From Gammaproteobacteria bacterium (GTDB lineage Bacteria; Pseudomonadota; Gammaproteobacteria; Pseudomonadales; Oceanobacteraceae): DNA of 64,000 nucleotides. The DNA is taken from the NCBI GenBank assembly GCA_013373125.1, contig JABXIK010000075.1, positions 11,845-75,844 on the forward strand, read 5' to 3'. This document shows, piece by piece, positions 16,849 through 26,312 of the stretch. The notes beneath the pieces were generated by a model that had not been told where the DNA came from, made no database searches, and was given only the letters and a program-made list of their open reading frames with translations. Positions within the stretch are counted from its first letter, which is position 1, and each line of letters begins with the position of its first letter. The position numbers were made by a program, and so were the translations under genes.

Positions 16849-16852
16849 ATTT

Positions 16853-16878
16853 AAAAAGCCGGTTCGCCGGCTTTTTTT
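16853..16878. terminator. Bidirectional intrinsic terminator after pilZ
   Basis: AAAAAGCCGG-TTCG-CCGGCTTTTTTT. Confidence 0.9.
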
Positions 16879-16880
16879 AT

Positions 16881-17034
16881 GGGTGAGTGAGTTCAATTTT
16901 TTAAACCGTTCGCACTGAGCAGCGAGGAACGAGCGTAGTCGAAGGGTGGCTGTCTATAAGCGCAAGTGCGTCTTACGAATAGCGTTAATTATTTGAGGTT
17001 TCGCATTTTGGATAATTAAATCCAGCACGGTTTT
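16881..17034. repeat. Copy 1 of a ~155-bp imperfect direct repeat
   Basis: Aligns to 17289-17441 at an offset of ~408 bp (shared GTTCGCACTGAGC...GCGAGGAACGAGC...GTCGAAG...CGCAAGTGCGT...GCGTTAATTATTTGAG...GCACGGTTTT). Confidence 0.95.
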
Positions 17035-17288
17035 TTCTTCTCGGGATTGCATCCCGGACCCTGCTTCGAGGCTCGCCTCACAGTGAATTAGATTGTGGTT
17101 ATGCGGCGTTCGGAGGCCGCATATTGTTATCGACTCGTGTCTGGTTGCCGGTTGGTTCTGAAACAACATTGCTTGTACGAGAGTGTCCCGCGCCCGATAA
17201 ACGGTTGTTCATTAAAACCGTTTTCCCTGAGCTAGTAGGAACCTGCACCCAGAATGCCCCGCGAACGAAGTGAGTGTTTTGGGTATGC

Positions 17289-17441
17289 GGGTGAATGTGA
17301 TTGATTTTTAAAACAGTTCGCACTGAGCGCGAGGAACGAGCAGTCGAAGTGTGGCTAATATCTAATTCGCAAGTGCGTTTTACGGATAGCGTTAATTATT
17401 TGAGTTTTCGCATCTTGGATGATTAAAGCCTGCACGGTTTT
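17289..17441. repeat. Copy 2 of the ~155-bp imperfect direct repeat
   Basis: See copy 1; overlaps the 3' half of the 51-aa ORF. Confidence 0.95.
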
Positions 17442-17510
17442 CTTATTGTATTTCAAGTACTCTGCCCACTTGATTGCCCCTTGCTGTATAAAAAAAGGAC
17501 TTTTGCCCAT
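17355..17510 (-). pseudogene. 51-aa ORF at the integron-integrase position: probable intI remnant or replacement microprotein
   Basis: Starts MGKSPF (resembles IntI N-termini) with an AAGGA RBS; lies just downstream of a LexA box and divergent from attI; no tyrosine-recombinase catalytic residues. Confidence 0.45.
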
Positions 17511-17533
17511 AATCTTTCCTTGCAGTAAAGAAT

Positions 17534-17549
17534 CTGTATAAATAAACAG
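17534..17549. promoter_or_regulatory. LexA (SOS) operator in the integrase-type promoter
   Basis: CTGT-ATAAATAA-ACAG matches CTGT-N8-ACAG exactly; LexA boxes are established features of intI promoters. Confidence 0.9.
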
Positions 17550-17806
17550 TATATTTGAGATTATGAAAGAAAATAGCAAGATGAGGCACGAAAAATCAGA
17601 AAAAAAGTTCTCATTTTTACCTATTCAATAAACGAAAAATACTTTAGATTCAATGGCTTATTAAAATCGCGTCCGAAATCATGAGACCCCATGATTTCGG
17701 ACAAAAGCGGCATGCTCATTTTTATTGGACATAATAAGACGAGAATCAGCTTTAGTGCTTATTAATCAAGCATTTATAGGGTTCTTGAAAGGTTGATTGA
17801 AAATGC

Positions 17807-17840
17807 AAAAATGAGCATGCGCACGATTAAAATGTTAAAT
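17807..17840 (+). other. attI recombination site (core GTTAAAT at 17834-17840)
   Basis: GTTAAAT is the exact reverse complement of the first cassette's inverse core ATTTAAC (18426-18432) but is not preceded by an attC hairpin; left boundary is approximate. Confidence 0.8.
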
Positions 17841-17846
17841 TTAAGT

Positions 17847-18425
17847 ATGAGAAATATGAAAAATATATTAGTTACCTTACTTTTTCTGATGTCTGTAAAA
17901 GTGACAGCTGATGTGGGAAAGCAAGCCTATGACTTAGTAAATTCAGGGGATGTGCAAAAAGCAATTGAATTGCTTTCTAAGAAAGAACATAAAGAAAAGC
18001 CTGAAGCTTTATTCATGATGGGAATGATTTACGACTCAGGAAGAGGTGTTGAAAAGGATATAGTAAAAGCCTCAAATTACTATGAGCGTGCTGCAAAGAA
18101 AGGGAATGCCGTAGCTCAATTTTATATTGGTATGTTTTATAAAGATGGTGTTGGCGTTGAAAAGGACTCGGAGAAGGCAATATATTGGCTTCGAAAAGCT
18201 TCTGAGCATAAAAATACTAGAGCGATGGGTATGTTAGCTGCATTACTAGCAGCTCCAGAAAAAGGAGATTTGATAGAGGCTTATGCATGGGCACATATCG
18301 CCGCAAAGTATGACGCAGTACAAGCCCAAACATCAGCTAGAAAAGTAATTGAACATTATTTAACGAAAGAACAGATAGCCGAAGCAAAGTTGTTAATTAA
18401 AAAAATTGAATCTAATTGGAATTAA
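17847..18425 (+). CDS. Cassette 1: secreted Sel1-like repeat (tetratricopeptide) protein
   Basis: ALFMMGMIYDSGRGVEKDIVKASNYYERAAKKG and AQFYIGMFYKDGVGVEKD Sel1 repeats; signal peptide; start moved inside the cassette. Confidence 0.9.
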   Translation: MRNMKNILVTLLFLMSVKVTADVGKQAYDLVNSGDVQKAIELLSKKEHKEKPEALFMMGMIYDSGRGVEKDIVKASNYYERAAKKGNAVAQFYIGMFYKDGVGVEKDSEKAIYWLRKASEHKNTRAMGMLAALLAAPEKGDLIEAYAWAHIAAKYDAVQAQTSARKVIEHYLTKEQIAEAKLLIKKIESNWN

Positions 18426-18486
18426 ATTTAACAAGGCGCTCAAGCAAGGACGCAGCAAAGCTGCGCCGCTTAGCTTGGCGTTATTT
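18426..18486 (+). repeat. attC1 (61 bp)
   Basis: ATTTAAC...GCTCAAGC/GCTTAGC...GTTATTT. Confidence 0.93.
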
Positions 18487-18503
18487 GGCAACTGGAATCT
18501 AGT

Positions 18504-18812
18504 ATGAGAAAAGTTATTGGTTTAATTCCAGGTATTAGCTTCTTTATATATTTCGTAGCTACGTTTGATGAAATTAAACTATCAATTTTGATGGGAGCTT
18601 TAGCTCAATCTATTGCAGTGGGTAGTATTGGGTATTTCTATTTTAATGCTCCAGCTGGAAGGCATCATACTGAAACTGCTTTCGGAATAACGGGTAAATA
18701 TAGAAACCCGATACACGGAACAATTATACCTGCCAAAACGGCAGTGATTGTCATTGCCATGATTATATTGTCCTGCATTTTAGGTCTAATTTTTAATCGC
18801 TATGGCTATTAA
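18504..18812 (+). CDS. Cassette 2: hypothetical membrane protein (about 3 TM)
   Basis: 102 aa with hydrophobic segments, between attC1 and attC2. Confidence 0.75.
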   Translation: MRKVIGLIPGISFFIYFVATFDEIKLSILMGALAQSIAVGSIGYFYFNAPAGRHHTETAFGITGKYRNPIHGTIIPAKTAVIVIAMIILSCILGLIFNRYGY

Positions 18813-18815
18813 TGC

Positions 18816-18875
18816 AAATAACAAGGCGCTTAAGCTTTGGACGTGCTCCGCACGCCGCTTAGCTTGGCGTTAACT
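18816..18875 (+). repeat. attC2 (60 bp)
   Basis: AAATAAC...GCTTAAGC/GCTTAGC...GTTAACT; very similar to attC1. Confidence 0.93.
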
Positions 18876-18896
18876 CTTCGTGCATTAAGGATAGAT

Positions 18897-19418
18897 ATGC
18901 GAATTTTCTATAGTTTATTACTTCTCTGTTTTTCTCAATTTGTACTTGCTGATTGGAAGGTCCAAGGAATTAGAATGGCCTGTGGAGATGATTTTAAGGT
19001 GCTCTCTCACAATCTAATTAACAAAGAGCCTAAAGAAGAGCTATATGAAGACATTGATGGCTCTTGGCTAGTTTTTAGAGCTCAAGAGAAAGAATTAGAA
19101 TGTAGCCTGAATGGCCTAACAATCAAAAGTAAAGTCACAGGAAAAAAGTCTTCTGCGCGAGGAGCTTGTGGCTCCGCAAAAGGAGCGAGCTTAAGTCTAA
19201 CGATTAATGGATTAGAAATTTTAAAGAATTCATTAATGAATAATGAGTGCTATCAATCAATTGATAAAATTGAAATCAGTCCTCAAAAAATTACAATTTG
19301 TGGCCATCAAGGAAATGGTAAGGCACAGGAATGCTTTGATAGCAGCTGGGAAAATATCAGTGATATGCAATTACCGCTTTCCCCATTTCCAATTAGTAAG
19401 TTAAAAAATCAAGAATGA
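18897..19418 (+). CDS. Cassette 3: secreted Cys-rich hypothetical protein
   Basis: Signal peptide MRIFYSLLLLCFSQFVLA; several Cys in the mature part; supplied start 18837 lies inside attC2. Confidence 0.8.
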   Translation: MRIFYSLLLLCFSQFVLADWKVQGIRMACGDDFKVLSHNLINKEPKEELYEDIDGSWLVFRAQEKELECSLNGLTIKSKVTGKKSSARGACGSAKGASLSLTINGLEILKNSLMNNECYQSIDKIEISPQKITICGHQGNGKAQECFDSSWENISDMQLPLSPFPISKLKNQE

Positions 19419-19521
19419 GTTAACAAGTGGCAGCAACGGACTTGCAAAAGTGTCACTCGTTTTGCCAAAAAGCCGGCAAAACCAGCGCCACTTTTGCAAG
19501 CCGCTGTGCCAGGCGTTAGCT
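19418..19521 (+). repeat. attC3 (104 bp)
   Basis: AGTTAAC...CTTGCAAAAGTG/CACTTTTGCAAG...GTTAGCT. Confidence 0.92.
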
Positions 19522-19538
19522 GTATAAAAGGATATGAT

Positions 19539-20021
19539 ATGAAATTAACACTTGGAAAAACTAGGTGGCAAAGATTTGAGAGTATTGCTCTTCTTGTTTT
19601 GATTTTCTTGGGTCTATCTGGATATGGCGTGTTTAAACATTTTGCCTCAGGAGTAACTTCCTCAGGTGAAGATTCAAAGCAATATGTAGAAGCTTATATT
19701 GCAAGTTCTCTAGAGAAAGAAATTGAGTGTAATTGGGCGGGTTATGCGCAAAGCAGAAAGACCGATCTTAAACAAGTTTTCGTTCAATGCCGTCCTCTTA
19801 ATAATATACCGGTCGAGATTAATAACGAAGAGCAATTACATAAAGCTATTGATGAGTATGTTGTCTCGCCTGCAATACACTCTTTGCCTATGGATGAGGG
19901 GCTTTCTATCGTTACGATTATGCAGATAGATAAAGCAACAGTAACTTGTAACGATATCAGGAAAGGAAAAATAGTTAACCAGTGGATAGATACCTATGAG
20001 AACTATTGCTGGCCACTTTAA
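19539..20021 (+). CDS. Cassette 4: membrane-anchored hypothetical protein
   Basis: N-terminal TM segment; start ATG 19539 after AAGGA. Confidence 0.78.
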   Translation: MKLTLGKTRWQRFESIALLVLIFLGLSGYGVFKHFASGVTSSGEDSKQYVEAYIASSLEKEIECNWAGYAQSRKTDLKQVFVQCRPLNNIPVEINNEEQLHKAIDEYVVSPAIHSLPMDEGLSIVTIMQIDKATVTCNDIRKGKIVNQWIDTYENYCWPL

Positions 20022-20024
20022 ATC

Positions 20025-20072
20025 AGCTAACAAACAAAGGCAGCGGATAAACCGCTGCTTTGGGCGTTAAAA
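20025..20072 (+). repeat. attC4, minimal 48-bp site
   Basis: AGCTAAC-AAACA-AAGGCAGC-GGATAAACC-GCTGCTT-TGGGC-GTTAAAA. Confidence 0.88.
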
Positions 20073-20077
20073 ATCGT

Positions 20078-20380
20078 ATGAATACGGAAGCGCTAAACAA
20101 AGTATTTGAAAGAGTCGCGGTAGCTTTGGAAACTGTGGAGATAGACCAATACTTTTGCGATCCACGTGGTGGGTTCTTATCAATCTTACAAGGAACACGC
20201 ATTTTCTTGCGGAGAGAGAGCTACCCAGAACAAATTGAGTCTCTGGCTAATTCACACCTAGACCAGTGTGAACTATTGCTAAGGGAAGTTACCGAAAATG
20301 GAGTATCTAGTACTTCAAAAAACGAGGCTTTCCGCCTAGCAAAACAAATTAGGGAGCAGCAGTGGGGCCAAACTTTTTAA
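20078..20380 (+). CDS. Cassette 5: hypothetical cytoplasmic protein (100 aa)
   Basis: ORF fills the cassette; stop TAA lies within R'' TTTTAAC. Confidence 0.75.
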   Translation: MNTEALNKVFERVAVALETVEIDQYFCDPRGGFLSILQGTRIFLRRESYPEQIESLANSHLDQCELLLREVTENGVSSTSKNEAFRLAKQIREQQWGQTF

Positions 20381-20518
20381 CAAGGCCAGGCAGGATGCTC
20401 CGGGCCTTCGGCCTTCCGCGGGATAGCGTACCTTGGGCACGTTTTGCGCGGGTCGCTGCGCTCCCAGTTTCGCGAAAAACGTGTACAAGGTAAGCTGCCC
20501 CTGCTGGCGGCGTTACAT
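20375..20518 (+). repeat. attC5 (144 bp, GC-rich)
   Basis: TTTTAAC...branched palindrome (TACCTTGGGCACGTTTT/AAAACGTGTACAAGGTA)...GTTACAT. Confidence 0.9.
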
Positions 20519-20533
20519 TTCTAAGGATATGCA

Positions 20534-21181
20534 GTGACCTCCGATTGGCAGGATTATATTAAGGCTAGAAAGAACGGCTTAAAAAAGCAGTGGAAAGCAC
20601 TGCTTGCAGAGAGGGTCAGTTATATTGATTCCCTTGATGCTGATAAACAAGCCGAATACTTGAATAACCTTTGCCATCATTACTTTGATCTCGGCGCGAC
20701 AGAAATTCCTATTCAGCATCCTGATATCTGGAACAAGATTCTTGAAGCTTGGAAAGTAGCTAATATTTGGGAGAATAGTATCTATCTTTTTTGGCTTGCA
20801 AAGGCATTAACTTCTACGACTGGAAGCTTCAAAGGTGCATATCTGCTATTAAATAAAGATCCTATAGATATATTGAGTAGAGTAATGGAGCTTGACTCAA
20901 ATAACTTTGAGGCAAAGAAAATCTTATTTAAGCAACACCTGCACACTTTAGATTTTGGTATGCATTCAATTGATACTGGAATGGTAATCGAAAAATATGT
21001 AGGTGATGAGGCAATCACGGAATGTGAAAAACTCATAAAAATTGAACCTAATTTAAAACATTGTAAATCTAGATTTGGTGGTGATTTCGAATACTACAAA
21101 AGCAGGTTTTTAGCTTGGTATGAATATTCGAAAGAAGATACAAAATTAGACTTCGATGATTGGTATAAACAAAAAATGTAA
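20534..21181 (+). CDS. Cassette 6: hypothetical cytoplasmic protein (215 aa, probably helical)
   Basis: GTG start 6 nt after AAGGA; stop within R'' ATGTAAC. Confidence 0.8.
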   Translation: MTSDWQDYIKARKNGLKKQWKALLAERVSYIDSLDADKQAEYLNNLCHHYFDLGATEIPIQHPDIWNKILEAWKVANIWENSIYLFWLAKALTSTTGSFKGAYLLLNKDPIDILSRVMELDSNNFEAKKILFKQHLHTLDFGMHSIDTGMVIEKYVGDEAITECEKLIKIEPNLKHCKSRFGGDFEYYKSRFLAWYEYSKEDTKLDFDDWYKQKM

Positions 21182-21247
21182 CAATACGTTGGTGTACGCC
21201 CCTTCGGGGCTGGACGGCTACGCCGCCCCACAACATTGGCGTTAGCG
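21176..21247 (+). repeat. attC6 (72 bp)
   Basis: ATGTAAC...GCCCCTTCGGGGC...GGCTACGCC...GTTAGCG. Confidence 0.92.
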
Positions 21248-21257
21248 AGTAGAACTA

Positions 21258-21677
21258 ATGAGAATGATTAGATATTTAATTGCAGTATTACTAGCTGCTT
21301 CATCTATTTGCTCCAAAGCTGAAGTATTTACACCCGTCGGTACTTTTAGTGACTTGAAATGTATTGAATCACAAGGTGATGTTCTTGGGGTTGAAATATC
21401 ATTTATCCCAGGCTTCAAAGATTCACGATATGAGTATTATGCTTTGGTTCAATTTGCGGAAGGTGTCGCAGCTAAACCAGAGTATGTACCTGTAAAAATG
21501 GTCAAGGATGAATTTTCATTTCTGGTTAATTATCTTGGATACTTTGATGTAACCGTTGAAGGTAAAATTTCAAGCGACCGCTTGATTGGTAAAATCAGCG
21601 CACCACTAAAACAAGAGATTGAATTGAAAAGACAAGTTAGCTTCTGGAATAGAGGTGGGTCTCAGTGTATTCGCTAA
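21258..21677 (+). CDS. Cassette 7: secreted hypothetical protein
   Basis: Signal peptide; stop within R'' CGCTAAC. Confidence 0.8.
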   Translation: MRMIRYLIAVLLAASSICSKAEVFTPVGTFSDLKCIESQGDVLGVEISFIPGFKDSRYEYYALVQFAEGVAAKPEYVPVKMVKDEFSFLVNYLGYFDVTVEGKISSDRLIGKISAPLKQEIELKRQVSFWNRGGSQCIR

Positions 21678-21747
21678 CAAAGCCAGCCAAAATCGCCAGC
21701 AAGCTGGCTGGACTCGTTTCACTCGCCATTGCTGGCAGGCGTTAGGT
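21672..21747 (+). repeat. attC7 (76 bp)
   Basis: CGCTAAC...GCCAGCAAGCTGGC...GTTAGGT; near-identical to attC12, similar to attC10. Confidence 0.93.
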
Positions 21748-21763
21748 TCATCAAGGAAGTCCA

Positions 21764-22564
21764 ATGCGAAGAAATCGAAATATAAGCAATATAATAGGTG
21801 GTGGACCTGCTTTAGATCTCGTTTCAACAGTTGAAAGATTTGTATATAGAACCCCTATAGATAGAAATGAAGAACTACATTTTGAAGAGTTAGATCAAGA
21901 TTTGCTTCAATATGCGCTTGATGCAGAACAAATATCTGAAAATACGGCCTTGCACAAGGTATTAAGTGATTTAGCGTACATTGACTTCTACTTATATCTT
22001 TATGATGACCTAGATTGGGTTAGTGAGTATACGGACTTTTCAGAGTATGCAATCACCATGTTTAAACATATGAATATAACTGTGCCTAGAGAGTTTAATA
22101 GAAAGTCAGCAGAAGGAATTATCGAGGCGAGAGACTTACATCGAGATTTATTTCTTTCCGGCCTGCAAACTTTTGTAAACTCAGCCTTTGCTCACTTATG
22201 GTATAGAAAAGCGTTCTTACATGATTTCAACGTTAGATTGGCAGAGAAGATCGCTCCTTTGTTAAAGTCCGACTTTCCATGTCTAGAGCAGGATGGAAGG
22301 CTGGCAAGGGCGCAGCATTTCAATAAATGGGTTCGTGATTTAATACTAAATCGAGAGGGCGGGCTTTGCCATTATTGTAGCCAGCCAGTAGCAATACCTT
22401 CGCTGCCCAACCAAACCTACGACATTGATCATATGGTTCCCATCGCACGAGGCGGAACAAATGACCCTACTAATTTGGTTTTATCATGTTCAAAATGCAA
22501 CAACAAAAAAAGAGCCAAGGTTCAATCAGTACCAGACACTTTTGCCTGGCCAGAGAGAACCTAA
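21764..22564 (+). CDS. Cassette 8: HNH endonuclease (C-terminal HNH domain)
   Basis: CHYC...DIDHMVPIARGGTNDPTNLVLSCSKCNNKK is a classic Zn-bound HNH motif. Confidence 0.9.
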   Translation: MRRNRNISNIIGGGPALDLVSTVERFVYRTPIDRNEELHFEELDQDLLQYALDAEQISENTALHKVLSDLAYIDFYLYLYDDLDWVSEYTDFSEYAITMFKHMNITVPREFNRKSAEGIIEARDLHRDLFLSGLQTFVNSAFAHLWYRKAFLHDFNVRLAEKIAPLLKSDFPCLEQDGRLARAQHFNKWVRDLILNREGGLCHYCSQPVAIPSLPNQTYDIDHMVPIARGGTNDPTNLVLSCSKCNNKKRAKVQSVPDTFAWPERT

Positions 22565-22618
22565 CAAATCAAAGCACTCGGACGCAGCAATGCTGCGCCG
22601 GTGTTTGAGGCGTTATAA
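22559..22618 (+). repeat. attC8 (60 bp)
   Basis: ACCTAAC...AAAGCACT/GGTGTTT...GTTATAA. Confidence 0.92.
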
Positions 22619-22624
22619 ATCAAC

Positions 22625-23053
22625 ATGAAAAAATTACTATTTTCTTTAATGTTTCTTTCACCTAGTTTGTATGCTTGTGAAATACCACTGGGTAAATATA
22701 TCGCGATTACAGAAACTGAGTATTCACTTGAGCTTGAACTTAAAGCTGATGGGCTTTACACGTTTTATCATAAAAATTGGCTCCCAGGAGGCCTTCATCA
22801 TGTTGGTGAAGAGCACATTTATAAAGGGTTATATGTCTGTACTGCTAATAAGCTTATTCTCGTTTACACAGACATAAGCGAAAAATTAATAGGCACATAT
22901 ATTGAGCGGTCTCTGAAAGATGAAGGTTTTCCTCTGGAGGTGGGGGAAACAAAAGTTTTAGATTTTACTGGGGCACCCGAAACAAAAAGTGTTGTCACTG
23001 GTTGGTACTATTGGCCGGAAAGCTATGTTCAAGAGGCTTCTGAAAATTTATAA
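22625..23053 (+). CDS. Cassette 9: secreted hypothetical protein
   Basis: Signal peptide MKKLLFSLMFLSPSLYA-C; stop within R''. Confidence 0.8.
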   Translation: MKKLLFSLMFLSPSLYACEIPLGKYIAITETEYSLELELKADGLYTFYHKNWLPGGLHHVGEEHIYKGLYVCTANKLILVYTDISEKLIGTYIERSLKDEGFPLEVGETKVLDFTGAPETKSVVTGWYYWPESYVQEASENL

Positions 23054-23176
23054 CAAAGCCATCATGCGTCGCCAGCAAGCTGGCTGGACAAATTTTCCTT
23101 CGTTTGTTTTGTGGCTTAACGCTACGCTACCACAAAACAATCAACTCCAAATTTGCCGCATATGGCGGCGTTATGA
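23048..23176 (+). repeat. attC9 (129 bp)
   Basis: TTATAAC...TTTGTTTTGTGG/CCACAAAACAA...GTTATGA. Confidence 0.92.
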
Positions 23177-23188
23177 GGCAGAGCTGAT

Positions 23189-23482
23189 TTGAAGCTTTTA
23201 TTTTACTTTATAAATATCGCTTTAATTTTAAGTGTGTTGGCTTGGCCATATGGCATATTAATCAGCACATTTATGTTTAGCGACCCAAGTATTACTTATA
23301 CAATTAGTCACGAAATTTTAGGTTATTGGATTATATTTTATCCCGCACTTGTCTATATCGGGAGCACTCGTTTTTTCAAAAAACGAAATATTGAACCCAT
23401 TTTAAAATTATCAGGATATACTGTCATTTCAGCCTTAGGACCTATTCCGTTTTTTATTTTGTATCTTTTAAATGTTCACTGA
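23189..23482 (+). CDS. Cassette 10: hypothetical membrane protein (about 3 TM)
   Basis: TTG start; hydrophobic segments. Confidence 0.7.
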   Translation: MKLLFYFINIALILSVLAWPYGILISTFMFSDPSITYTISHEILGYWIIFYPALVYIGSTRFFKKRNIEPILKLSGYTVISALGPIPFFILYLLNVH

Positions 23483-23516
23483 ATTTTCAGTGTACTCAGA
23501 AAATAGATTTTAAATC

Positions 23517-23590
23517 TCATAACAAAGCCAGCCAATTCGCCAGTAAGCTGGCTGGACACGTAAACTCGCCATTGCTGGCAGGCGTTAGGT
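23517..23590 (+). repeat. attC10 (74 bp)
   Basis: TCATAAC...GTTAGGT; same family as attC7 and attC12. Confidence 0.92.
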
Positions 23591-23595
23591 GAACA

Positions 23596-23898
23596 ATGGA
23601 TAATCAAGCAAAGGCGCTAGCCGCAATAAAGGAAGCTTCTGGCACGGAGTTAGGTGAATATAGTGTTGATGAATTTATTTCACACCATCTAGAGGAATTG
23701 CCAGCCGATTACTGGAAAAAGCATTTAGGTACAACCTCTCCGACTACTGAAAGTGTCATTGGGCTGCTTGTTTTACGCAGCAAGTGGGATGATTCTGAAG
23801 TATATGATTTTACTCTCCCCGAAGAGGTTACAGATTATGTTGTTAGCGTATCATTTGACGACGACGGTGAAATTGAAGATATAACAATGGAAAGTTAA
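23596..23898 (+). CDS. Cassette 11: small acidic protein, DUF2004-like
   Basis: C-terminal DFTLPEEVTDYVVSVSFDDDGEIEDITMES resembles DUF2004 as recalled from memory, not searched. Confidence 0.55.
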   Translation: MDNQAKALAAIKEASGTELGEYSVDEFISHHLEELPADYWKKHLGTTSPTTESVIGLLVLRSKWDDSEVYDFTLPEEVTDYVVSVSFDDDGEIEDITMES

Positions 23899-23902
23899 GT
23901 TC

Positions 23903-24003
23903 ACCTAACAAGTCATTTCAGCAGGACAAAAAACAGCTGGTTTTTGCTCGTGCCTCGCTAATTTTAACCAGCTATTTTGTTGCCTCTGAATGAGGCGTTA
24001 ATA
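23903..24003 (+). repeat. attC11 (101 bp)
   Basis: ACCTAAC...AGCTGGTT/AACCAGCT...GTTAATA. Confidence 0.92.
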
Positions 24004-24011
24004 GTATAAAT

Positions 24012-24437
24012 ATGATATTTACATTCCCTAAAAACGTAGCTTCAAAAGCTCAAAGTAATATCCGCTGGTTAATTTTAGTTTGGATTGTACTCTTGGGTTT
24101 CATGATAGGAACATCGCCAAAGGAACAAGGAGAGATGCCTAGTCTATTTAATGCTATATCATCAGCATTATTTAGCTTTTGGTTCTTTGTTTTATTTTCT
24201 ATAGTTATTGCCGTTTCATACTTTAAGGAAAAACCTGGAATCCCCGTGAGCTCTTTTTGGGTGCAAGTAACTAGCTCTAATTGGTACGTTAAGCTATCAA
24301 GTTCTAGCATTCTTTCATGGCTTAATAAGAAATGGAGTCAATTTGCGTATTTAATGTTTTTATTAGTATTCTACGCGATGGGTTTATTCGGATTATTTAC
24401 ACTTTTTTTCATTGTATATGGTTATTCAGAAATTTAA
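24012..24437 (+). CDS. Cassette 12: hypothetical membrane protein (about 3 TM)
   Basis: Hydrophobic segments; ORF fills the cassette. Confidence 0.75.
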   Translation: MIFTFPKNVASKAQSNIRWLILVWIVLLGFMIGTSPKEQGEMPSLFNAISSALFSFWFFVLFSIVIAVSYFKEKPGIPVSSFWVQVTSSNWYVKLSSSSILSWLNKKWSQFAYLMFLLVFYAMGLFGLFTLFFIVYGYSEI

Positions 24438-24448
24438 TTTCAAAGCAC

Positions 24449-24524
24449 TATTAACAAATCCAGCCAAAATCGCCAGCAAGCTGGCTGGACTCGTTTCACT
24501 CGCCTTTGCTGGCAAACGTTATTT
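24449..24524 (+). repeat. attC12 (76 bp)
   Basis: TATTAAC...GTTATTT; near-identical to attC7. Confidence 0.92.
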
Positions 24525-24533
24525 ATCGCGGTA

Positions 24534-25142
24534 ATGATACTCGTTAGGGTTATAGGTATGATTTATTTTCGATTTCTTCTTATTTTAGTTTTTTTTAGTG
24601 GTGTTGGTGCTTGTGCATATGGTCCAACTAATAATGTCGATTTTAATAATAAAATTAGTTTAAAAGATTTAGATGGCTCTTATGAGAATGAAATGGAAAC
24701 TACAGAAAATAACTTGAACCTATTTTCTGCATACATATGGCCATACCCCGAAAATCTACAATATAAAGAGCTTTTGGCTCTTTCAAATAAGCACAAAAAT
24801 ATAGATCTTATAAATATATCACTTTTAGGGTCTGAACTAATATTCGAAGCTATTGATAATAATTGTGTAATATTAAAGAAAAGTATCAATGTTCATTATC
24901 GATTTGAAAGTGGACAATTTAAATTAGAGTCAAGTTATAGCAATTGGAGTGAAGTTCATATAGGCCCAAAATTTAATAAGAAAACTATTGGATTGGATCT
25001 TAATGATTATGCCAAACTGAGAAGCTTAGACCGTGCTGGAGGGTTAGCATTTTGGGTTATTCCATTTGCAATATTCGAATCAAGAGATTATAGAATTAAA
25101 AGAGTTTCTGAAAAGCATTCATTCGCTGAGTGTAAAACTTAA
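24534..25142 (+). CDS. Cassette 13: putative lipoprotein
   Basis: Hydrophobic leader ending GVGA-C (lipobox-like); true start may be 24558. Confidence 0.72.
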   Translation: MILVRVIGMIYFRFLLILVFFSGVGACAYGPTNNVDFNNKISLKDLDGSYENEMETTENNLNLFSAYIWPYPENLQYKELLALSNKHKNIDLINISLLGSELIFEAIDNNCVILKKSINVHYRFESGQFKLESSYSNWSEVHIGPKFNKKTIGLDLNDYAKLRSLDRAGGLAFWVIPFAIFESRDYRIKRVSEKHSFAECKT

Positions 25143-25206
25143 ACTATTGGCATAAGTAATCGTTAATGTGTCAAGTACAAAAAGTACGCAGTATAAGCTT
25201 CAAACT

Positions 25207-25254
25207 AAATAACAAATCGTTCTTGCGGATGAACCGCAAAACTAGGCGTTAGGA
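25207..25254 (+). repeat. attC13, minimal 48-bp site
   Basis: AAATAAC-AAATC-GTTCTTGC-GGATGAACC-GCAAAAC-TAGGC-GTTAGGA. Confidence 0.9.
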
Positions 25255-25260
25255 ATACTT

Positions 25261-25602
25261 ATGTTGGATACTGAACGTTCAATATTAATTTGGTTTAGTG
25301 TTGCTATGATTCCCACTGTGATCTATTCAATAATTCAGATTGCCTTTTACAGTGGTTTAAAAAATAATTTCCCTAAGCAATGGGAGCACGCTGGCCGACC
25401 TACAATATGGTCTGACGGTAGCTGGGTCACTTCCGGTCATGTTATTGATTACCTGCGAAATGAAAAGTTTAGAGAAAGTAATGACACACTAGGTATGGAA
25501 TATTGTAGGAATAATAGAAAAGCTATGATTCTAAGTTATTGGCTATCTATATATTCATGTGGCGCATTCTTTATTTTTCTTCTTATTACTGCATATTGGT
25601 AA
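25261..25602 (+). CDS. Cassette 14: UspB-like two-TM membrane protein
   Basis: Size (113 aa), topology and the pattern LKNxxP...YL...KFR...D...C..NR...IL parallel E. coli UspB; aligned by eye. Confidence 0.55.
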   Translation: MLDTERSILIWFSVAMIPTVIYSIIQIAFYSGLKNNFPKQWEHAGRPTIWSDGSWVTSGHVIDYLRNEKFRESNDTLGMEYCRNNRKAMILSYWLSIYSCGAFFIFLLITAYW

Positions 25603-25615
25603 CACAAGTGGCTAC

Positions 25616-25699
25616 TCCTAGCAAAGCAAGGCACAACCGCACAGCGAGCTGTGCTGGACTCACTCATACTTCACTCGCCTGTGCTTGCGGGCGTTACAA
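25616..25699 (+). repeat. attC14 (84 bp) with mutated inverse core
   Basis: R'' reads TCCTAGC instead of TCCTAAC; R' is GTTACAA. Confidence 0.85.
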
Positions 25700-25993: not shown

Positions 25994-26058
25994 TAAAAAA
26001 ATGATCGCCCTAAGAGCTGGACTTCACTACGTTCGGCCCATTACTAAGGGCGCTACGA
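25988..26058 (+). repeat. attC15, degenerate terminal site (71 bp)
   Basis: R'' TTGTAAT (AAC to AAT) and R' GCTACGA (GTT to GCT); internal CACTACGTTCG module retained. Confidence 0.7.
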
Positions 26059-26066
26059 ATTAAAAC

Positions 26067-26312
26067 ATGCTTAAAAAACTAAACCAATTACTAGAATCCA
26101 TTCCATATCCGCTCTTACTGGTCATGAGTGTGTTTATGTTGATCGCGCCCATTCAGCCTGAGCCGCACTTAGTGCAAAAGTTTCATTGGTTGGTGAAGGG
26201 GTTACCGTTTAAGGCGATTGATGTGTTTGATGTGTTCTGGCACTTGTTGCCATTGTTTCTGTTAGGGTTGAAATTTTTCTTGGCTAGGCATTATCAACGG
26301 CCTCACTCTTAA
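26067..26312 (+). CDS. Small conserved-looking membrane protein
   Basis: PxxPEPHLxxK...IDVFDVFWH pattern; no downstream attC, so treated as chromosomal. Confidence 0.7.
   Translation: MLKKLNQLLESIPYPLLLVMSVFMLIAPIQPEPHLVQKFHWLVKGLPFKAIDVFDVFWHLLPLFLLGLKFFLARHYQRPHS

Follow-up and report, generated by a model that had tools for sequence, protein, structure and literature searches.

The window analysed here is a whole stretch of 64,000 nt from a gammaproteobacterial contig (JABXIK010000075.1, positions 11,845 to 75,844), which contains an array of 14 integron cassettes, each ending in an attC site, and two of these sites, attC4 and attC13, are only 48 bp long. We consider it likely, with a probability of about 0.82, that both are bona fide attC sites of a discrete and widespread family of 48-bp minimal sites, with a core of 42 nt from TAAC to GTTA. 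A selected family of this kind, with almost no variable terminal structure (VTS), had been proposed in a preliminary description of this DNA, and it is strongly supported by hundreds of independent copies, by the covariation of the stem, by the mobility of the cassettes with exact boundaries, and by the presence of family members in complete integrons.

The lengths quoted for attC sites in open-access integron papers are 57-141 bp (PMC5027507), 56-141 bp in mobile integrons (PMC5371416), and 55-141 nt, the L boxes being 14-102 nt apart (PMC7370490), and a VTS of 20-100 nt is given in the paper on IntegronFinder (PMC4889954). With 48 bp and 9 nt between the L boxes, attC4 and attC13 lie outside these natural ranges, and the earlier statement that they are shorter than the quoted minimum holds against all three length ranges. 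The quoted range is descriptive, and not a mechanistic requirement. No attC of less than 55 bp is described in the literature searched, which comprised open-access text only.

The two 48-bp attC sites

20025-20072, + strand: attC4, minimal attC of 48 bp, given as the top strand; R'' 20025-31, spacer 20032-36, L'' 20037-44 (one extra G), GG 20045-46, loop ATAAA 20047-51, CC 20052-53, L' 20054-60, spacer 20061-65, R' GTTAAAA 20066-72; crossover between G20066 and TT; sequence AGCTAAC AAACA AAGGCAGC GGATAAACC GCTGCTT TGGGC GTTAAAA.
25207-25254, + strand: attC13, minimal attC of 48 bp, given as the top strand; R'' 25207-13, spacer 25214-18, L'' GTTCTTGC 25219-26 (extra C at 25222), GG 25227-28, loop ATGAA 25229-33, CC 25234-35, L' 25236-42, spacer 25243-47, R' GTTAGGA 25248-54; crossover between G25248 and TT; sequence AAATAAC AAATC GTTCTTGC GGATGAACC GCAAAAC TAGGC GTTAGGA.

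The length of 48 nt and the 7-5-8-9-7-5-7 parse, as first described, are confirmed from the sequence at these positions. The AAC...GTT triplets are present in both sites (AGCTAAC/GTTAAAA in attC4 and AAATAAC/GTTAGGA in attC13), and the degenerate R/Y flanks of the consensus RYYYAAC/GTTRRRY are only partly matched by their R boxes, a partial fit that is usual in chromosomal arrays. The L boxes (AAG-G-CAGC/GCTGCTT in attC4, GTT-C-TTGC/GCAAAAC in attC13) are imperfect inverted repeats with one extra base in L'', and the observation that they are unrelated between the two sites, while each pairs with itself, stands. The apices had been called nearly identical, and indeed differ at one position, but this reading needs to be refined, given that the GG and CC are paired and the true unpaired apex is a loop of 5 nt, ATAAA in attC4 and ATGAA in attC13, which closes a 6-bp stem. 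The pattern TAACAA-N11-GGATRAACC-N10-GCGTTA matches the window twice, at attC4 and attC13, against 0.00 matches expected from 100 shuffles.

When the bottom strand is folded with DNA parameters, a hairpin with a single bulge is predicted for attC4, in which the R stem is followed by an internal loop (2x2), a stem of 11 bp with a single C bulged out, and a loop of 5 nt (-12.3 kcal/mol). For the bottom strand of attC13 in its array form, the upper stem alone folds (-7.6), and the full hairpin is predicted with the first bases of the cassette itself, as in the excised circle (-10.0).

A widespread family of minimal sites

A search for the same architecture elsewhere, which the preliminary description had proposed, was made with the pattern given above, in which only the ends and the apex are fixed, with small gap tolerances. 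It covered viral contigs (IMG/VR), reference genomes at one genome per species, metagenomes, plasmids, and phages, and recovered 3 loci in viral contigs, 65 in reference genomes, and at least 120 in metagenomes. About 5 matches are estimated by chance for the genome collection (596 Gb searched on both strands, with 9 combinations of gaps and 20.5 bases specified), and one genome match, in Phyllobacterium, is not a hairpin. The three viral loci (L001, L002, and L003) are IMG/VR contigs classed as viral, each with a minimal attC of the family. No family members were found in the phage collection, and none in the plasmid collection beyond one weak 47-nt variant on the 860-kb replicon of Pseudoalteromonas shioyasakiensis (CP076682.1, 106311-106357).

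The hosts, of more than 30 genera, are mostly marine Gammaproteobacteria, such as Bermanella, Oleispira, Thalassolituus, Neptuniibacter, Marinomonas, Gilvimarinus, Porticoccus, Microbulbifer, Paraglaciecola, and Photobacterium, together with a few Desulfobulbaceae. The family statistics rest on 198 copies among the matches listed, which represent 93 distinct sequences. The core from TAAC to GTTA is 42 nt long in 169 of these 198 copies, 43 nt in 24, and 41 nt in 5, and the 41- and 43-nt variants alter the central spacer and leave the upper stem unchanged. A strict geometry of a 6-bp stem, a bulge, and a 4-5-bp stem is found in 172 of the 198, and most of the remaining 26 have the canonical 3-bp lower L stem. 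The loop varies on the top strand among ATAAA, ATGAA, ACAAG, and ACAAA, all of which begin with A, and the apex appears to be strongly, but not absolutely, conserved.

In metagenome runs X2, X3, X5, and X6 there are also relatives with the R and L arms of attC4 and insertions of 5 or 9 nt in the apex (cores of 47 and 51 nt), and the variant on the Pseudoalteromonas replicon is another such relative. These longer-apex relatives may be ancestors or derivatives of the minimal form. A scan for TAAC..GTTA hairpins with cores of 34-60 nt, in which every site was scored on both strands, returned long sites with the same apex that proved to be artefacts of neighbouring TAAC and GTTA motifs. A generic attC detector (AAC...GTT plus L-box pairing) was dropped when reversed sequence gave as many matches as the real one.

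Covariation of the stem

The covariation of the stem was assessed in 73 distinct bottom strands, in which the R-box pairs and the two loop-closing GC pairs are fixed by the pattern. Standard pairs occupy 94.7% of the cells, against 75.0 +/- 0.9 in column shuffles (0/500), and both sides of the pair have changed in 213 cells, against 77.7 +/- 6.7 in the shuffles (0/500). The covariation score is 0.456, compared with 0.118 in the shuffles (0/500) and at most 0.141 with slid partners. Compensatory double changes occur in all nine pairs that the search pattern left free (for example, AU 34, UA 33, and CG 5 at one pair, and GC 41, CG 12, and UA 11 at another), and the same structure was predicted independently by RNAalifold.

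Cassette boundaries and mobility

19516-20066, + strand: cassette 4, TTAGCT...G, with one open reading frame (ORF) ending at 20021.
24519-25248, + strand: cassette 13, TTATTT...G, with an ORF at 24534-25142 (202 aa).

The first 7 nt of circular cassette 4, GTTAGCT, are the exact complement of its R'', AGCTAAC, and R'' is complementary at 7/7 positions to the start of its own cassette in 13 of the 14 cassettes, including both cassettes with 48-bp sites, against a match of only 4-6/7 between R'' and the adjacent R'. The match between R'' and the cassette start, which the preliminary description took to mean that these cassettes did integrate, thus stands at 7/7 for both sites and proves that the cassette boundaries are correct, but it gives no orientation, because it is symmetric under strand reversal. 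The orientation of the sites is set instead by the ORFs, by the attI remnant, and by five complete integrons. In the family as a whole, CGTTA followed by the complement of the member's own R'' triplet lies within 3 kb upstream of 102 of 187 members, against about 10 expected, and the cassettes defined in this way are 241-1850 bp long, with a median of 552 bp.

A segment of cassette 13 including attC13 (24517-25250) is found with 7 differences in 734 nt (~99% identity) in metagenome runs X20 and X21 and in the organism-labelled runs X24 and X25, and in all four runs both flanks differ from those of the window. The match is limited by the CGTT of the preceding R' and by the GTT of attC13. In locus L094, cassette 13 lies between a different, longer attC and a different downstream cassette, with boundaries between G and TT, and from these comparisons the cassette has moved as a unit.

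In 20 fetched copies, the core of attC4 (42 nt, 20028-20069) has an identical sequence. It is found in metagenomes from salt marsh, microbial mats, plastic biofilm, and seawater, with flanks that part from those of the window precisely at positions 20028 and 20069. Among the contigs with this core in a single run, 8 differ upstream and 6-7 differ downstream, and parts of cassette 4 are present in runs X2 and X5. The boundaries of cassette 13 and the unrelated flanks of attC4 thus lend comparative support to putative recombination by IntI between G and TT. No excision joints were found in the contigs of other runs, an assembled type of data that is unable to show rare circles.

In homologues of the cassette-13 protein with 50-56% identity, the same attC subtype follows the gene (36-38 of 42 nt identical), and the spacer between the stop codon and attC is unalignable. 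Because the attC subtype is kept while the spacer before it cannot be aligned, the minimal site is maintained by selection.

Given these results, the two sites are most improbable as the outcome of two independent chance deletions of longer attC sites, which would have left non-functional stumps. Longer sites (60-144 bp) do occur in the same array, and relatives with apex insertions exist in metagenomes, but the hundreds of copies, with 93 distinct sequences and one fixed geometry in more than 30 genera, the covarying stems, the movement of the cassettes bounded by minimal sites, and the retention of the site across protein divergence to 50-56% identity all speak otherwise. The chance-deletion reading is refuted by the copies of the family, the covariation of the stem, and the rule of the cassette boundaries.

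The hairpins may also be compared with other palindromes that could lie inside cassette arrays, such as a repetitive extragenic palindromic (REP)-like repeat, a terminator hairpin, or a motif related to CRISPR. A hairpin placed just after an ORF is in a terminator-like position, and a literature search by apex sequence returned only papers on CRISPR I-E repeats. On the other hand, no T-run follows the hairpin in attC4 or attC13, the ends are TAAC and GTTA, the flanking triplets follow the circular-permutation rule of cassettes, the similarity between copies stops exactly at the attC borders, and the arrays have canonical attC sites in alternation with the minimal sites, which are found downstream of intI and oriented in the canonical way. 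Rfam, which has no attC family, was searched at the gathering threshold and at E-values up to 1; none of its families matched the sites, and the search gave only spurious microRNA-hairpin matches on attC3. A palindrome of another kind is thus very unlikely, and the attC reading is retained.

The apex GGATAAACC (20045-20053; compare 25227-25235) has the same sequence as type I-E CRISPR repeats at their 3' end (...CGGGGATAAACCG), which is probably a coincidence.

Family members in complete integrons

Full-length IntI homologues were found by tblastn beside minimal sites in five loci, of which L047 belongs to Neptuniibacter caesariensis MED92, L042 to Gilvimarinus agarilyticus, and L062 to Exilibacterium tricleocarpae, the other two being L104 and L033, and a frameshifted intI lies near a minimal site in Microbulbifer echini (L021). 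All five intact intI genes are divergent from the array, and the minimal site is on the top strand of the array, 1.6-4 kb downstream, as roughly the third to sixth candidate attC by the count of CGTT motifs. The five integrases are 39-48% identical to one another. The IntI of L104 aligns over its full length with VchIntIA (PDB 2A3V, E = 6.5e-86), including the integron-specific insertion, and has the conserved W219 and an R at the position of W157, as in IntI1.

Extrahelical bases and the proposed architecture

The bottom-strand arm opposite the AAC of an attC site is described as running from the terminal structure through a T, 6 nt, a G, the rest of L'', and the spacer to R'', and the 6-nt spacing between T and G is optimal for IntI1, IntI3, IntI2*, and SonIntIA (PMC3053210; PMC5027507). 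In synthetic sites, the improved design that was proposed has its extrahelical bases at distances of 9 and 16 nt to the R box, and the shift to these positions raised the recombination of some of the sites tested (PMC7439510). The corresponding arm of attC4 is 5'-(loop TTTA)T CCGCTG C CTTTGTTT GTTAGCT-3', in which, counting along the sequence from R'', we find the bulged C at nucleotide 9 and the last T of the loop at nucleotide 16. The earlier claim that these sites have no room for a second extrahelical base therefore fails, given that the last loop nucleotide of the bottom strand is a T, 6 nt 5' of the L-box bulge. The T-N6 spacing is present, but the T lies in the terminal loop rather than in a bulge, and the other base is mostly C. 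A T beside the R box, also considered as the second extrahelical T, was rejected on the basis of the T-N6-G literature.

Of the 73 distinct members of the family, 58 have C as their first extrahelical base, while 7 have G, 6 have A, and 2 have T. In an alignment of hundreds of attC sites, this base was reported to be "almost exclusively a G", and the replacement of G by C caused a 2.7-fold loss in the Vibrio cholerae repeat (VCR) (PMC2727003), although SonIntIA and IntI2* tolerate or prefer a C at this position (PMC3053210).

The folded bottom strand begins with an R box made up of TAAC/GTTA, a G.T, and, in the excised circle, three pairs specific to the cassette, followed by a short VCR-like central spacer (GCC opposite TTT) and a lower L stem of 3-5 bp. 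One extrahelical base (mostly C, sometimes G) comes next, then a stem of exactly 6 bp, and at the top a pyrimidine-rich loop of 5 nt (TTTAT or TTCAT), with its 3' T at the canonical position of the second extrahelical T. The site thus looks like a canonical attC truncated at the second extrahelical base, which has lost the apical stem and the VTS, and retains both integrase-binding boxes and both unpaired bases. Such a truncation would explain the fixed 6-bp stem, the fixed length, and the loop variants that all start with A. There is a high probability that IntI would bind and cleave the minimal hairpin like a canonical site, and the balance tips slightly toward the loop T serving as the second extrahelical base.

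A different account accepts the sites as real attC sites and assigns the near-constant apex to shared ancestry only, with no extrahelical role for the loop T and a single L-box bulge sufficient. This account is unlikely, even though deletions of single extrahelical bases often have little effect on IntI1 with short sites (PMC5027507), variants of the apex exist, and its conservation is partly an ascertainment artefact, given that the apex was fixed by the search. The free pairs of the stem have all turned over, yet the stem between bulge and loop remains at exactly 6 bp and the loop at 5 nt, and every loop variant keeps the first top-strand A, which is the bottom-strand T at the extrahelical position. 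The 41- and 43-nt variants, in turn, alter the central spacer and not the 6-bp stem.

Several points weigh against the reading of attC4 and attC13 as bona fide minimal attC sites. In synthetic sites, IntI1 recombination benefits from an apical stem that is stable around the second extrahelical base (PMC7439510), and the minimal sites, which have no apical stem, may therefore recombine poorly with some integrases. The R box of attC13 is unpaired in the array-form prediction, and the nearest-neighbour energies give no advantage to the bottom strand over the top strand (mean +0.23 kcal/mol). Because the search pattern prescribed the apex and the ends of the R box, the conservation of the apex is measured with a bias; of the co-resident sites that lay outside this selection, about 10 show GGATRAACC and another 5 the related apices GGACAAGCC, GAACAAGCC, and CGACAAACG. 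Finally, the two copies in the window may now be frozen, their own array having lost intI.

A broader proposal, which we advance tentatively and rate at somewhat below even odds, is that the family marks the physical lower limit of the substrate of integron integrases, with everything beyond the second extrahelical base dispensable and the loop able to supply the T. If this is true, a sole folding route may make the minimal sites especially efficient and promiscuous, which fits their spread over more than 30 genera and beside integrases that are 39-48% identical.

The cassette array and the integrase-less platform

17834-25699, + strand: cassette array of 14 cassettes, each ending in attC; attI crossover between G17834 and TTAAAT.
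17491-17840, strand not assigned: remnant of the integron platform, with the intI promoter region and the attI region, the intI coding sequence being absent.
17534-17549: LexA box CTGTATAAATAAACAG, within the remnant of the intI promoter.

The 14 attC sites span 18426-25699 on the + strand and are, in order, 61, 60, 104, 48, 144, 72, 76, 60, 129, 74, 101, 76, 48, and 103 bp long, the 48-bp sites being numbers 4 and 13, each after a short ORF of the + strand. Core genes flank the array, mltG-tmk-holB-pilZ at one end and a regulator of the AraC type at the other end. The interval from pilZ to the first cassette (16849-17840) retains only the promoter region with the LexA box and the attI region; the segment 17491-17556 has 83% identity to the intI-start region of the metagenomic integron L104, and 17522-17838 resembles the attI regions of loci L083 and L151. 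A tblastn search with IntI found no coding remnant of intI, and no tyrosine recombinase was found among the window ORFs scanned against Pfam (a subset) or by tblastn of the window with IntI1. With 14 attC sites and no intI within 64 kb, the array falls under the definition of a CALIN (cluster of attC sites lacking an integron integrase), at least two attC sites without a nearby integron integrase. Because the attI region and the LexA-regulated intI promoter remain, the array is a sedentary chromosomal integron that has lost intI by deletion.

The place where intI would be expected is occupied by a tandem duplication (16881-17441, with a period of ~407 bp and copies 83-91% identical), part of which (17235-17296) is 92% identical to contig L005 of a Bermanella metagenome-assembled genome (MAG). 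Some attC families of the window also occur in MAGs of Bermanella, Oleispira, and Thalassolituus, which hints at an origin in the Oceanospirillales.

Other attC sites of the array belong to abundant types as well. For example, attC7 (21672-21747), attC10 (23517-23590), and attC12 (24449-24524) are near-identical sites of 74-76 bp, of another very abundant marine attC family that many of the fetched loci contain and whose word depth exceeds 4000 in one run, and attC5 (20375-20518, 144 bp) is hugely repeated in the marine metagenome run X3, with a word depth of up to ~25,000. The sole cassette with a match of 5/7 between R'' and its start is cassette 14 (R'' 25597-25603). Past the last clear attC, a degenerate attC-like palindrome without TAAC/GTTA (25994-26070), 78% similar to a stretch of L046, is probably a decayed terminal site.

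As for the contents of the cassettes, cassette 1 (17793-18425) encodes a Sel1-repeat protein and cassette 8 (21764-22564) a 266-aa protein with an HNH endonuclease domain. Apart from these two, seven cassette ORFs were scanned (in cassettes 2-5, 13, and 14, and the ORF after attC14), and they gave no significant Pfam match.

Significance of the minimal sites

The attC sites are recognised by shape over sequence, and the minimum shape has so far been probed with mutants and designed sites. The minimal family may be a natural answer to this question, with 48 bp, no apical stem, and a 5-nt loop, and it would lower the minimum of the accepted attC size range by about 8 bp. It provides a natural test of two experimental rules, namely that the unpaired bases are spaced 6 bp apart and that they lie at the 9/16-nt positions, and it runs against the inference that a stable apical stem is needed, besides being an exception to the "almost exclusively a G" at the first extrahelical base. 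In practical terms, tools that assume at least 14 nt between the L boxes, or a VTS of at least 20 nt, may miss such sites and merge neighbouring cassettes. The lower size limit of IntegronFinder is 40 bp, and minimal sites may already stand unremarked in published tables. The family could also serve as a compact natural substrate for structures of the integrase-attC synapse and for tools of structure-specific recombination, and it should be of solid interest to integron specialists, as well as useful for tool design.

Comparison with known systems

The smallest characterised attC sites of mobile integrons are attC_aadA7 (60 bp), attC_ereA2, and attC_dfrB3, a group of 57-70 bp. The minimal sites resemble this group in the R box, the unpaired central spacer, the L box with its extrahelical base, the 6-bp stem, the second unpaired T, and a tiny loop, and in the attC_aadA7 group the bottom strand is the recombined strand (PMC5027507; PMC2727003). 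They differ from it in length (48 bp against at least 57 bp) and in the first extrahelical base, mostly C rather than G; attC_aadA7 also keeps an apical stem past the T (6 bp and a GAA loop, as read off the sequence), whereas the minimal family has none, and its T lies in the 5-nt loop.

The R box and spacer (TAACAAA.../...GGCGTTA) are almost the same as those of the VCR. The VCR is ~120-130 bp long and has three extrahelical bases, in contrast with the 48 bp of the minimal family. When the 65-nt VTS of the VCR was replaced by GAA (mut22-VCR), recombination barely changed, by 1.6-fold (PMC2727003), which shows that the terminal structure is dispensable, although mut22-VCR, by our own count, retains a stem past the last extrahelical base, which the minimal family does not.

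In attC_dfrA1 and its T-N6-C derivatives (Larouche and Roy 2011), the extrahelical base of the L box is C, as in the minimal family, and SonIntIA, IntI2*, and IntI3 excised the T-N6-C sites at least as well as the T-N6-G sites (PMC3053210). The wild-type attC_dfrA1, on the other hand, has A-N7-8-C, is much longer, and belongs to a mobile cassette of classes 1 and 2, while the minimal family is marine and chromosomal.

The array of the window is likewise comparable to the CALIN elements (Cury et al. 2016), with its 14 attC sites and no intI within 64 kb, but unlike a CALIN understood as a detached array, it retains the attI region and the LexA-regulated intI promoter.

Finally, the improved design proposed with the synthetic attC sites of Nivina et al. 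(2020) has a GC-rich stem and, at distances of 9 and 16 nt to the R box, two unpaired bases separated by 6 bp. The synthetic designs carried a VTS of 3-21 nt atop an apical stem, the stability of which mattered for IntI1, and the minimal family has no such stem; by our own count, it nevertheless has exactly the same 9/16-nt distances as the improved synthetic design. Taken together with these known systems, the minimal sites are a new variant of the integron attC, and not a new kind of system.

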